Positions 37,577 to 38,877 of a DNA stretch of 64,000 bases are shown here, piece after piece (positions within the stretch are counted from its first letter, which is position 1; each line of letters begins with the position of its first letter). This DNA comes from Escherichia phage WPEC5. Position numbers and translations under genes: made by a program. The stretch is from the sequence record PV654397.1, one strand, 5' to 3'. A model generated the notes under the pieces. That model ran no database searches, had not been told where the DNA came from, and saw only the letters and a list, made by a program, of their open reading frames with translations.

Positions 37577-38128
37577 CTATAGATAGCTGATTAGTAAGTT
37601 TTCTTTTTGTACAAGATACTCTAATTCTTGTTTCGCAGTTCCGATGAAGTTCTGTGTCATAAGATTATTATATCCTGCTTCTCGATTTTGTCCCTTCGAA
37701 TAACGAGAGATGTGACATAAATTTACACCAGCCACCTCTGCACTAGCATGTTTGCCATATGCATAATTATCACGAAGTTTTTTAAGTTCAGCATAAGTCA
37801 TTTCATAACTATAGCTATGTGAGTGACCCTCTGGAAACAATTCAAGTGATTTTAATGGAGACAGGCGACTTTTGTCAATGATATAGTTCATTTCTTCTTG
37901 TACTTCACGTTGTAACGCATCTTCTAATGACTTATCAGTACTTTCAACTGTTCCACCACATGCACCCAACAATCCATCCCAACGCACTTGTAGGAGTACT
38001 AAGTTAACCACTGGGATATCATTTAGTTCATAACCAGAGTATGGGGTACATTCTTTTGCATAAAAGAAACAGAATACAAAATTTGCACGTTTCCCCAGTT
38101 GTCCCAGTGGTACTTCAGCTTTACTCAT
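37577..38128 (-). CDS. hypothetical protein (183 aa)
   Basis: Track ORF. Confidence 0.5.
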   Translation of the reverse strand: MSKAEVPLGQLGKRANFVFCFFYAKECTPYSGYELNDIPVVNLVLLQVRWDGLLGACGGTVESTDKSLEDALQREVQEEMNYIIDKSRLSPLKSLELFPEGHSHSYSYEMTYAELKKLRDNYAYGKHASAEVAGVNLCHISRYSKGQNREAGYNNLMTQNFIGTAKQELEYLVQKENLLISYL

Positions 38129-38877
38129 CGCATTCGTTCCTTAATTATAGTTTCAACCTGTGGAATTGCTTTCGTCGCAGGTTTGATGACCTTCTCATTA
38201 AAAAGAAAATCATTATCATTTTTTCGGATGTTAACATTTACACTATAGCATGGAAGTGCACCAGCTAGTCTGGACCATACCAGTACTGTATCACTACTTC
38301 CAATAACTACAACTGTATCATTTTCTGTGAGACTTTTCAACACTTCATTTCGTTCTTCATAAATGGGGAGACGTACCCCATCAACGTAGCGATGATACTC
38401 ACCAATCATCACTACATTTGGTTTTGCAAAAACATCAGCTTTAGGGATATATGGTTCATAACCACAATTAATGACATTGTAATCATCAGTATTAATAGAA
38501 AAGTTCTCAATTACTTCACATAAATTGCCGTGTAGTTTGAGTTCGGTTCCACCAATTCTAGTATATAGATCATCCATATTAGAAGTCATGTGTAAAAAAC
38601 AATCACCATACAAATCTTCTAATGATTTAATAAAGTAATGCATTTCATTAGGATGACATTCACCTAATTTTACACGCAATGTATTATAAAATGAATGAAC
38701 TACATGATACTTAGAACTAAGTCGTGCAATGTTACAAACATCATTAATTTTGAAATTGTCCCACAACCCATCATCAAAGCGGAATGGTTCCATCCCACTC
38801 TCAACTGAAAGACCTGCCCCTGAAATTATAAGTAATCTTTTGTTCCCAGCATTTTGTATAAATTTATCTGATATCAC
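38125..38877 (-). CDS. Sir2 (sirtuin) family protein
   Basis: GAGLSVESGMEPFR, catalytic-type LHGNL, VVMIGE and VVVIGSS match sirtuin Rossmann motifs; GTG start after AAGGAG. Confidence 0.65.
   Translation of the reverse strand: MISDKFIQNAGNKRLLIISGAGLSVESGMEPFRFDDGLWDNFKINDVCNIARLSSKYHVVHSFYNTLRVKLGECHPNEMHYFIKSLEDLYGDCFLHMTSNMDDLYTRIGGTELKLHGNLCEVIENFSINTDDYNVINCGYEPYIPKADVFAKPNVVMIGEYHRYVDGVRLPIYEERNEVLKSLTENDTVVVIGSSDTVLVWSRLAGALPCYSVNVNIRKNDNDFLFNEKVIKPATKAIPQVETIIKERMR

Follow-up and report, generated by a model that had tools for sequence, protein, structure and literature searches.

What does a sirtuin do in a virulent jumbo coliphage? The question is raised by Escherichia phage WPEC5 (accession no. 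PV654397.1), of which a 64-kb stretch, here called the window, was analysed. The window is from an Asteriusvirus-like jumbo coliphage, and one of its genes was assigned to the Sir2 (sirtuin) family in an earlier note made from the sequence alone.

Sirtuin identity and the missing zinc ribbon

The gene starts with a GTG codon and encodes 250 residues, and its coordinates match the earlier note exactly (Table 1). The product is a genuine member of the SIR2 superfamily, far beyond a chance match. It covers positions 1 to 178 of the 180 positions of the Pfam SIR2 profile (Pfam ID PF02146) with an E value of 1.3e-19 and 71.3 bits against a cut-off of 24, and it matches the PHROG 2162 "Sir2" profile with an E value of 7.9e-74. 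The NAD-binding motifs and the LHGNL histidine that the earlier note had quoted are all present, namely, GAGLSVESG (aa 20-28; nt 38794-38820) followed by FR (aa 32-33), LHGNL (aa 115-119) with the catalytic His116 (codon CAC at 38530-38532), VVMIGE (aa 155-160), and VVVIGSS (aa 189-195). The NAD-pocket residues G20, A21, G22, S24, S27, G28, F32, R33, T98, N100, D102, G193, and S195 are present and conserved, among them an intact set for the NAD and nicotinamide pocket (G20, G22, S27, G28, F32, R33, N100, and D102), and H116 and G117 are invariant in 148/148 aligned homologues.

The best sequence match among solved structures is E. coli CobB, with an E value of about 2e-21. The AF2 model (pLDDT 94.8, pTM 0.91) superposes on CobB with a TM of 0.76 to 0.85 at 28% identity and an intact NAD pocket, so that both the HMM search and the structure prediction proposed in the earlier note support its assignment. 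The top 50 structural neighbours are all canonical sirtuins, and CobB, SIRT5, Sir2Af1/2, and Sir2Tm are nearest in sequence as well as in fold. The gene is under strong purifying selection, with a dN/dS of 0.044 against a PBECO4-like orthologue. On the NCBIfam CobB equivalog models, the protein scores 84.7 to 89.3 bits, which is about a quarter to a third of the cut-offs of 243 to 320 bits. Recent host capture of a true CobB orthologue was considered and rejected, given these low scores and an identity of 28 to 31% to E. coli CobB. Motifs and model together predict a catalytically competent zinc-less sirtuin, which is related to CobB yet is not a CobB equivalog.

A Cys4 zinc-ribbon small domain is typical of canonical sirtuins, although it is not universal. 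The absence of an obvious CxxC...CxxC ribbon, as described in the earlier note, is borne out, with no CxxC motif in the phage protein and only two cysteines in the small domain (about aa 117-153), neither of which is conserved. At the two canonical Cys columns, E124 and D132 are shared by all or most of the 25 close relatives, whereas roughly half of the more distant homologues have Cys there, and at least three Cys of the zinc ribbon are also missing in 85 of the 148 nearest homologues. At useful thresholds, zinc-less and zinc-containing relatives cannot be told apart by any signature residue. For the sirtuins of Vibrio phages, the lack of the zinc site was already described in 2016 (PMC5107563).

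The phage protein has in common with CobB (PDB ID 1S5P/6RXJ) and human SIRT5 the GAGxSxxSG..FR motif, the N and D of TxNxD, the His of HG, the conserved Glu of (F/I)GE, and the G(T/S)S motif. It differs from both in the loss of the zinc Cys, in Leu67 at the CobB R95 column, in Ser for the Gln of TQN, and in an inserted beta-hairpin of 9 residues that follows the GE motif (aa 161-172). Only the tyrosine of the class III pair (CobB Y92/R95, SIRT5 Y102/R105) is kept, as Tyr64 aligned with CobB Y92, whereas the acyl-recognition Arg column holds Leu in 21/25 close relatives and Leu or Met across the jumbo clade. Beyond the type 1 clade described below, the WPEC5 lineage has changed FGE to IGE and lost the proline of VxP. 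The residues of the hydrophobic acyl-lysine tunnel (V155, V156, I/F158, and V198) are kept, and no new basic residue is conserved throughout the cassette-bearing clade.

Table 1. Features at and around the Sir2 gene of phage WPEC5, in window coordinates
Feature	Position	Strand	Basis
Sir2/sirtuin CDS	38125..38877	-	ORF, Pfam SIR2, PHROG 2162, CobB match, AF2, dN/dS
Zinc-less small domain, aa 118-152	38422-38526	-	no Cys4
Shine-Dalgarno-like AGGAG, 5 nt upstream of the Sir2 GTG	38883..38887	-	read from sequence
Small hydrophobic ORF, 66 aa, directly upstream of Sir2	38887..39087	-	ORF
NUDT16/X29-like Nudix hydrolase, 183 aa	37577..38128	-	Pfam, 5WJI match
cREC (cyclic-phosphate-processing receiver-like domain), 106 aa	37247..37567	-	Pfam cREC_REC PF20274, E=1.9e-23
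Small membrane protein, 100 aa	36948..37250	-	PHROG 14661 "membrane protein", E=1.6e-39
PIN-domain RNase fused to PhoH-like ATPase (PhoH2-type), 479 aa	35447..36886	-	Pfam
Sigma-70-like promoter match, TAGACA-16 nt-TATAAT with TG	40797..40824	-	consensus match only
Terminator-like hairpin and T-run downstream of PIN-PhoH	35067..35088	-	consensus match only

The cassette and its counterparts in other phages

Sir2 is the first enzyme encoded by a cassette whose genes all run in one direction and are, in part, translationally coupled. The Sir2 stop and the Nudix ATG overlap by 4 bp (ATGA), suggesting translational coupling, and the membrane-protein gene likewise overlaps the cREC stop by 4 bp. 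The Nudix product matches the Pfam Nudt16-like family (Pfam ID PF22327; E=1.4e-18), the NUDIX family (E=2.4e-7), and the human NUDT16 structure (PDB ID 5WJI; E=9e-12), the last in an alignment that includes the REVQEE catalytic box. In the cREC protein, D8, D9, R11, D47, H48, D49, H85, S86, and N88 are invariant among 60 homologues; its AF2 model (pLDDT 96.8) gives weak fold matches to response-regulator receiver domains only, and there is no characterised enzyme among them. The PIN-PhoH protein matches Pfam PIN_4 (E=4.5e-20) and PhoH (E=8.7e-45) and scores 155.6 bits on the NCBIfam model "RNA 5'-3' helicase PhoH2", under the 680-bit cut-off.

All 18 related jumbo loci with sufficient flanking sequence keep the order Sir2-Nudix-cREC-membrane protein-PIN/PhoH, even where Sir2 identity falls to 43%. 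The Nudix gene always lies directly 3' of Sir2, the membrane protein always lies between cREC and PIN-PhoH, and PIN-PhoH is conserved in the last (3') position. In 10 of the loci, which are of the Eneladusvirus type, cREC is fused to Nudix. The 66-residue ORF directly upstream of Sir2 is a doubtful member because it is present only in the closest relatives, with phmmer matches in two loci only (L001 and L007) and a fEgEco12 counterpart annotated as hypothetical protein g217. The earlier note had missed the Nudix-cREC-PIN/PhoH cassette, which is the most informative feature of the locus.

The promoter match in Table 1 is the strongest sigma-70-like one upstream of the gene array and is located just downstream of a terminator-like hairpin (40917-40942). 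The hairpin downstream of PIN-PhoH may be the end of the Sir2-cassette transcription unit, with the count of terminator-like sites not above the shuffled expectation. No structured RNAs or tRNAs were found near the Sir2 gene. The plus-strand ORFs that overlap it (38041-38268, 38392-38523, and 38729-38938) were rejected, being short and opposed to the uniform minus-strand coding of the window.

The neighbourhood has been described by Iyer, Burroughs, Anantharaman, and Aravind (2022, Viruses 14:1977, section 3.7.3; PMC9503650). The phage sirtuin clade of their type 1 neighbourhood, with Serratia phage BF (AQW88637.1) as the prototype, is the equivalent of PHROG 2162, and WPEC5 shares with this neighbourhood a Sir2 linked to Nudix, cREC, and a PIN endoRNase (PMC9503650). 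Eneladusvirus BF-type loci have the same cassette order, and their Sir2 proteins are 43 to 46% identical to that of WPEC5. However, Nudix and cREC are separate genes in WPEC5 and fused in the BF-type loci, and the window lacks the 2H phosphoesterase of the published neighbourhood and the upstream NAMPT/NMNAT. Among the related jumbo phages, a 2H/Acb1-like phosphoesterase lies upstream of the cassette in 15 loci, and Alcyoneusvirus and Eneladusvirus encode NAMPT and NMNAT just upstream of Sir2. The 64-kb window contains no homologue of the 2H/Acb1-like gene (best tblastn E=0.62) and no NAMPT or NMNAT gene.

The sirtuins of T5-like phages (Demerecviridae), rV5-like phages (Vequintavirinae), and Vibrio schizoT4 phages (KVP40, phiSt2) are 30 to 38% identical to the WPEC5 protein. 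They also have a zinc-less small domain of the same length (35 to 37 residues) and T(T/A/S)N for TQN, but unlike WPEC5 they keep YNxRR and FGE and lack the Nudix-cREC-PIN/PhoH cassette. Their genes adjoin those of RNA-end processing, either HAD_SAK_2 or an Rnl1 ligase with a kinase and cREC. In 25 T5-like loci, a HAD_SAK_2 "Swiss-army-knife RNA repair" phosphatase is found about 150 bp downstream of Sir2. In the rV5-like phage V18, Sir2 is flanked by a T4 Rnl1-type RNA ligase (E=5e-14), an AAA_33 kinase, and a metallophosphoesterase, and in a relative (L050), cREC (E=1.9e-17) is just upstream of Sir2. With the cassette and the upstream 2H/Acb1-like gene of the jumbo phages as the third case, the contextual RNA links of the phage Sir2 are reproduced in three independent phage lineages. 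In three of six metagenomic places examined, cREC lies directly upstream of Rnl2-type RNA ligases, with no sirtuin involved.

The window itself encodes Pnkp (53638-54570) and Rnl1 (55393-56535), 15 to 18 kb from Sir2. A further ligase gene (45948-47366) is T4 DNA-ligase-like and was rejected as an RNA ligase.

Candidate functions

Deacylation, ADP-ribosylation, and manipulation of NAD pools, the activities suggested in the earlier note, are all possible functions. The acceptor candidates of the phage Sir2 are an RNA 2'-phosphate and an acyl-lysine. We tentatively favour the cassette as an NAD-dependent RNA-repair branch, in which Sir2 would act like Tpt1/KptA on an RNA 2'-phosphate. Iyer et al. 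had predicted both this kind of repair and the Tpt1/KptA-like role of the sirtuin (PMC9503650). Sir2 would bind NAD+, expel nicotinamide, and pass ADP-ribose to an acceptor oxygen, with His116 activating the ribose 2''-OH for attack on the acceptor, the usual course of sirtuin catalysis. The genomic context points to an RNA 2'-phosphate as this acceptor, the remnant of a healed 2',3'-cyclic-phosphate break. The by-product would then be ADP-ribose 1''-2'' cyclic phosphate. Its cyclic phosphate would be opened by cREC, in line with the predicted activity of that protein, and its pyrophosphate cleaved by Nudix, leading to AMP. The cassette as a whole would serve NAD-dependent phage RNA repair that counters the RNA-cleaving defences of the host.

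The chemistry of sirtuins and that of Tpt1 both have two steps, in which an oxygen nucleophile attacks C1'' of NAD+ and the 2''-OH then attacks the acceptor centre, a mechanistic fit with RNA repair. As the proposed functional analogue, Tpt1/KptA is NAD+-dependent and proceeds via an ADP-ribosylated intermediate. Its fold, however, is ART-like and unrelated to the Rossmann sirtuin, and for sirtuins the 2'-phosphotransferase activity is only predicted. Like the phage Sir2, Tpt1/KptA keeps genomic company with RNA ligases and cyclic-phosphate-processing enzymes (PMC9503650).

The RNA acceptor is argued wholly from guilt by association, and several observations count against it. The phage Sir2 has a pI of 5.5, as does the median of the clade, and is thus acidic, unlike typical RNA-binding enzymes; a basic RNA-binding surface, in contrast to Tpt1/KptA, is therefore not supported. 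The kept acyl-lysine tunnel, the lack of a clade-wide new basic residue, and the lack of residues that distinguish zinc-less from zinc-containing relatives point in the same direction. Pnkp and Rnl1 of the window make up a complete T4-type pathway, which would leave no junction 2'-phosphate, and the 2H gene of the published neighbourhood is missing from the window. PIN nucleases are not known to make cyclic-phosphate ends, and the activity of cREC is itself a prediction. We regard as rather doubtful the more specific proposal that the protein is a sirtuin-fold Tpt1/KptA analogue and no protein deacylase, with cREC and the NUDT16-like Nudix destroying the cyclic-phosphate by-product.

It is also possible that the phage Sir2 is a conventional CobB-like NAD-dependent lysine deacylase acting on host or phage proteins, where acyl stripping might, for example, reactivate heavily acetylated machinery in starved cells and the coupled Nudix, perhaps with cREC, would dispose of the O-acyl-ADP-ribose or ADP-ribose by-product. 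Nudix enzymes hydrolyse O-acetyl-ADP-ribose. Every one of the nearest relatives, whether judged by sequence or by fold, is a characterised deacylase; His116, N100, D102, and the hydrophobic tunnel positions are kept, and the acidic character of the protein fits a deacylase as well. The upstream NAMPT and NMNAT of related jumbo phages would suit the recycling of released nicotinamide, and a lysine-deacylase role was argued for Vibrio phage sirtuins in 2016 (PMC5107563). However, the scores on the CobB equivalog models fall far below the cut-offs, the jumbo clade has Leu or Met where CobB has R95, the Cys are gone from the zinc module that shapes the peptide cleft, and the FGE Phe and the VxP proline have been replaced in WPEC5. 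Nor would deacylation account for the way in which Sir2 recurs in linkage with RNA ligase, kinase, HAD_SAK, 2H, and cREC in three lineages.

A counter-defence or host-takeover enzyme working on NAD or ADP-ribose, which would either ADP-ribosylate proteins or nucleic acids or consume NAD+ in a controlled way, is unlikely. Nudix and cREC would here degrade ADP-ribose-derived immune signals or by-products, with the cassette lying within an anti-defence island. NUDT16-type enzymes remove ADP-ribose adducts and NAD caps. Related jumbo cassettes are flanked by the Acb1-like 2H gene, of an anti-CBASS family, and by the NAD-reconstitution pair NAMPT/NMNAT, and Iyer et al. regard phage Nudix, Macro, and NADAR domains as mainly countering ADP-ribose signals (PMC9503650). 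Sirtuins, however, act by breaking the bond between nicotinamide and ribose, and this bond is already gone from the known ADP-ribose-derived signals; the Acb1-like, NAMPT, and NMNAT genes are absent from the window. No Macro domain was found in the ORFs scanned between 27.5 and 49 kb, nor any other SirTM-like reversal partner among these neighbours, and the lack of an adjacent Macro gene sets the WPEC5 Sir2 apart from SirTM and toxin-antitoxin sirtuins.

In a last reading, the phage Sir2 would deplete NAD+ like a defence-type SIR2 NADase, for instance to exclude superinfecting phages. This is the analogy drawn in the earlier note, and the likeness turns out to be misleading. Although the Rossmann core and the missing canonical zinc ribbon are superficially shared with the defence SIR2 NADases (ThsA, DSR1/2, SIR2-HerA, and SIR2-APAZ/pAgo), this reading is very improbable and largely refuted, because none of 5027 PADLOC defence models matches at E<=0.01 and the structural neighbours are canonical sirtuins, the nearest of the CobB/SIRT5/Sir2Af type, and furthermore the standalone 250-residue domain has none of their sensors or partners (SLOG, HerA, pAgo/APAZ, or the large DSR C-terminal domain), and a virulent phage needing NAD+ would be harmed by such an enzyme.

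Distribution and biological meaning

The earlier note had called a sirtuin in a lytic phage unexpected, which does not hold, as the family is common in virulent phages of Enterobacteria and Vibrio. A tblastn search of 50,697 phage records found homologues in 982, among them records of T5-like, rV5-like, Vibrio schizoT4, and jumbo phages, and the family has a dedicated PHROG and the papers of 2016 and 2022. Near-identical jumbo-phage genes in GenBank are already labelled "Sir2-like protein" or "cobB". The gene, the family, and the neighbourhood are therefore all known, and the WPEC5 copy adds nothing new to the question of function. Our literature search found no experimental (biochemical or genetic) study of any phage sirtuin; the NARP3 paper is concerned with the host Sir2-HerA and not with phage sirtuins. 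The RNA-repair idea was published in 2022, so that novelty could now come only from demonstrating it.

Almost a thousand sequenced virulent phages, several jumbo-phage genera among them, carry a sirtuin. If the RNA-repair reading is true, RNA would be added to the substrates of the sirtuin fold, and phages would have a second, NAD-dependent RNA-repair route that undoes host RNA-cleaving defences. If the phage sirtuins are deacylases instead, they would be a means by which phages reprogram the host acylome.

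The sirtuin gene and its zinc-less small domain

An AGGAG lies 5 nt 5' of the GTG start of the sirtuin gene (Sir2), and the product contains the motifs GAGLSVESG (residues 20 to 28), FR (32 and 33), LHGNL (115 to 119), VVMIGE (155 to 160), and VVVIGSS (189 to 195). The Pfam SIR2 profile covers the full domain (E = 1.3e-19; 71.3 bits, cut-off 24), and the product also matches PHROG 2162, "Sir2 (NAD-dependent deacetylase)" (E = 7.9e-74). The top sequence match among solved structures is Escherichia coli CobB (E about 2e-21), followed by the archaeal Sir2Af1/2 and SIRT5. The AlphaFold2 model, built from an alignment of 148 homologues, has very high confidence scores (pLDDT 94.8, pTM 0.91) and superposes best with CobB (TM 0.76 to 0.85, 28% identity), with all top 50 PDB neighbours being canonical sirtuins. 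The dN/dS against the PBECO4-like orthologue is 0.044, with synonymous sites near saturation. These profile and fold matches, together with the dN/dS, identify Sir2 as a genuine gene that is under selection. As a CobB equivalog, the product was rejected (84 to 89 bits, cut-offs 243 to 320).

CxxC motifs are absent from the Sir2 protein. At the two columns where canonical sirtuins place their first Cys pair, Sir2 and all or most of its 25 closest relatives have Glu124 and Asp132, and roughly half of the more distant homologues have Cys. In the model, beta-hairpins (E117-124, E134-137) replace the ribbon, and the 9 residues inserted behind the GE motif fold into a further hairpin (E162-165, E168-171). 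This zinc-less small domain (35 to 37 residues, 0 to 2 Cys) is common to every enterobacterial and Vibrio phage sirtuin extracted, while some environmental phage contigs retain CxxC...CxxC; 85 of the 148 nearest homologues do not have three or more Cys in the segment. A 2016 study (PMC5107563) had already described the missing zinc site in the sirtuins of phiSt2 and KVP40, two Vibrio phages. The ORF and all the motifs quoted in the earlier note are thus present, and its family assignment and missing zinc ribbon stand; its description of the gene as unexpected and its comparison with defence effectors do not.

Active site and distribution among phages

Residues G20, A21, G22, S24, S27, G28, F32, R33, Y64, R68, P76, N77, H80, T98, N100, D102, H116, G117, P153, E160, and G193 are invariant or nearly so across the homologues, which points to intact NAD binding and nicotinamide release and leaves the catalytic His in place. 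Sir2 departs from CobB and the class III sirtuins at several positions: Ser takes the place of the TQN Gln (Thr, Ala, or Ser across zinc-less phage sirtuins), and Leu67 that of CobB R95, the class III Arg (Leu or Met in jumbo-phage relatives), whereas the T5-like and rV5-like relatives keep the class III YNxRR. Only in the Asteriusvirus and Alcyoneusvirus lineage does FGE become IGE and the G-S-S-x-x-V-x-P motif lose its Pro (LVW or LKW). We found no signature residues splitting zinc-less from zinc-containing relatives, and no newly conserved basic residue across the whole clade bearing the cassette of Sir2, Nudix, cREC, membrane protein, and PIN-PhoH genes.

In RaK2-like Klebsiella jumbo phages (Alcyoneusvirus; homologous loci L002 4001-4738 and L009 8001-8732, also P0011 and P0014), the Sir2 orthologues have a degenerate NAD-binding motif: GNG replaces GAG, YD replaces FR, and a deletion removes the GLW cofactor-binding loop. 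His116, N100, D102, and the entire downstream cassette are retained. These changes suggest that the enzyme of this lineage uses its cofactor differently or has lost its activity.

The 3-kb Sir2 region shares 98 to 99.3% identity with the Escherichia jumbo phages Ecwhy_1, fEgEco12, EC.P1, vB_Ec-M-J, CMSTMSU, Turkey3, and TH47, and about 78% with the group of PBECO4 (Asteriusvirus). Labels in those records include "Sir2-like protein", "Sir2", and "cobB: NAD-dependent protein deacylase". By tblastn, 982 of 50,697 phage records have homologues, spanning T5-like Demerecviridae, rV5-like Vequintavirinae, Vibrio schizoT4, and jumbo Asteriusvirus, Alcyoneusvirus, and Eneladusvirus. Finding a sirtuin in a virulent phage is thus nothing unusual.

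On an IMG/VR jumbo-phage contig (L012 7989-8749), Sir2 is split into two overlapping ORFs (7989-8237 and 8141-8749) as a result of a frameshift, pseudogenization, or misassembly. Relative to fEgEco12 (98 to 99% identical), the window lacks a 1.1-kb segment with a "WGR domain-containing protein" gene (L001 4303-5274) and carries an unrelated 564-bp segment at 32840-33403, a gene-replacement polymorphism between near-identical phages.

A conserved cassette in RNA-repair company

Features of the window discussed in the text
Feature	Coordinates	Strand	Evidence
Sir2 CDS	38125..38877	-	ORF, 250 aa, GTG start
NUDT16/X29-like Nudix	37577-38128	-	Pfam Nudt16-like E = 1.4e-18
cREC protein	37247-37567	-	PF20274 E = 1.9e-23
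Small membrane protein	36948-37250	-	4-bp overlap with cREC
PIN-PhoH fusion, PhoH2 type	35447-36886	-	Domain and family profile matches
Protease-like cluster	39110-39772, 40053-40661, 43594-44289	-	
Promoter-like site, strong	40797-40824	-	Consensus match only
Terminator-like hairpins	40917-40942, 35067-35088	-	Consensus match only
Calcineurin-like phosphoesterase	45137-45928		
T4-like DNA ligase	45948-47366		
PTH2-like ORF	48577-48996	-	139 aa, E = 1.2e-4
Polynucleotide kinase/3'-phosphatase (Pnkp)	53638-54570	-	AAA_33 and HAD_PNKP, E = 5.8e-43
T4 Rnl1-like RNA ligase	55393-56535	-	RNA_lig_T4_1 E = 4.6e-14; T4_Rnl1_C E = 2.6e-16
ORF in replacement segment	32835-33215		126 aa

The whole Sir2 neighbourhood lies on the minus strand, and the promoter-like site and hairpins would bracket a single transcription unit. 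The Nudix start codon and the stop codon of Sir2 overlap in the sequence ATGA, and human NUDT16 (PDB ID 5WJI) matches the Nudix protein (E = 9e-12) with the REVQEE box aligned. Genes for an HslV-like peptidase and a ClpP-like protease, together with a small hydrophobic ORF, lie on the 5' side. No Rfam families or tRNAs were found near Sir2, nor any tRNA genes within the 64-kb window.

In the upstream protease-like cluster, the HslV-like peptidase (PHROG 1040) has only weak HslV matches and accompanies the cassette in some, not all, related loci; the second protein is weakly ClpP-like and is labelled "head maturation protease" in fEgEco12, and the third gene is a clear ClpP homologue (E = 1.3e-41). 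The weak PTH2 (peptidyl-tRNA hydrolase) match, just below the Pfam cut-off, adjoins the DNA ligase and the phosphoesterase.

A phmmer search across the ORFs in 82 retrieved loci showed the cassette order in 18 of 18 related jumbo-phage loci with sufficient flank, down to 43% Sir2 identity; Nudix and cREC form a single fused protein in 10 Eneladusvirus-type loci. Alcyoneusvirus and Eneladusvirus carry NMNAT and NAMPT a short way upstream of Sir2, beyond the position of the 2H gene described next. A 2H/Acb1-like phosphoesterase lies directly 5' of Sir2 (gap about 240 bp) in 15 jumbo-phage loci (L003, L008, L010-L022), for example L017 7232-7750, which matches the anti-CBASS Acb1 family (PF23474, E = 2.8e-15). 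The 64-kb window contains no 2H/Acb1-like, NAMPT, or NMNAT gene.

The cassette matches the published type 1 neighbourhood, minus the 2H gene, and both other published types were reproduced independently. T5-like phages have a HAD_SAK_2 "Swiss-army-knife RNA repair" phosphatase about 150 bp 3' of Sir2 (25 loci), and in rV5-like V18, Sir2 is flanked by a T4 Rnl1-type RNA ligase, an AAA_33 kinase, and a metallophosphoesterase; a V18 relative (L050) has cREC just 5' of Sir2. At sirtuin-free metagenomic places, cREC is directly 5' of an Rnl2-type RNA ligase in three of six. The cREC model has a confident, short, receiver-like fold. Because its structural neighbours are response-regulator receiver domains alone, and weak, cREC enzymology is a prediction.

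On the freshwater metagenomic phage-like contigs L083 (637-1815, 4000-4365, 4429-5544), L084, and L085, cREC lies about 60 bp 5' of the Rnl2-type ligase (PF09414 and PF21189), with no sirtuin near the pair; L083 also has an Rnl1-type ligase and an AAA_33 kinase.

Candidate acceptors of the sirtuin

Judged from its residues and neighbours, Sir2 has a competent sirtuin catalytic core coupled to the NUDT16-like Nudix and cREC, and RNA-end-healing and RNA-sealing genes are recurrent sirtuin company in three phage lineages. Sir2 would spend NAD+, releasing nicotinamide, and its ADP-ribose-linked product would be degraded by the next two enzymes, Nudix and cREC. The reactions of sirtuins and of Tpt1 share a two-step logic. 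Because of this logic and the contextual evidence, we tentatively rank first an RNA 2'-phosphate as acceptor, in a Tpt1-like reaction. A KptA/Tpt1-like role for the sirtuin, in which ADP-ribosyl transfer removes the RNA 2'-phosphate, was proposed in 2022 by Iyer et al., with the partners processing cyclic-phosphate ends or the ADP-ribose cyclic-phosphate by-product (PMC9503650).

A close rival, which we place second as a possible reading, is a conventional lysine deacylase whose partners clear the by-product. In its favour, the sequence and fold neighbours of Sir2 are canonical deacylases, the protein is acidic (pI 5.5), and no RNA-binding feature is visible in it. The acyl-lysine tunnel is kept: V155, V156, I158, and V198, at the positions that line it in canonical sirtuins, are still hydrophobic. 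Furthermore, Pnkp and Rnl1, a complete T4-type RNA repair pair 15 to 18 kb from Sir2 on the same strand, require no 2'-phosphotransferase. An NAD/ADP-ribose counter-defence enzyme is unlikely, ranking below both the RNA acceptor and the deacylase. Ranking below these as well, a defence-type NADase, the analogy drawn by the earlier note, is highly improbable, as Sir2 is a standalone domain matching no PADLOC defence model.

The feature is already known, being annotated in near-identical genomes and having its own PHROG; the zinc-less state has been on record since 2016, and the neighbourhood and mechanistic prediction were published in 2022. Literature searches turned up no experiments on phage sirtuins. 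The window gene alone does not advance the substrate question, and the remaining interest lies in that question for the family as a whole.
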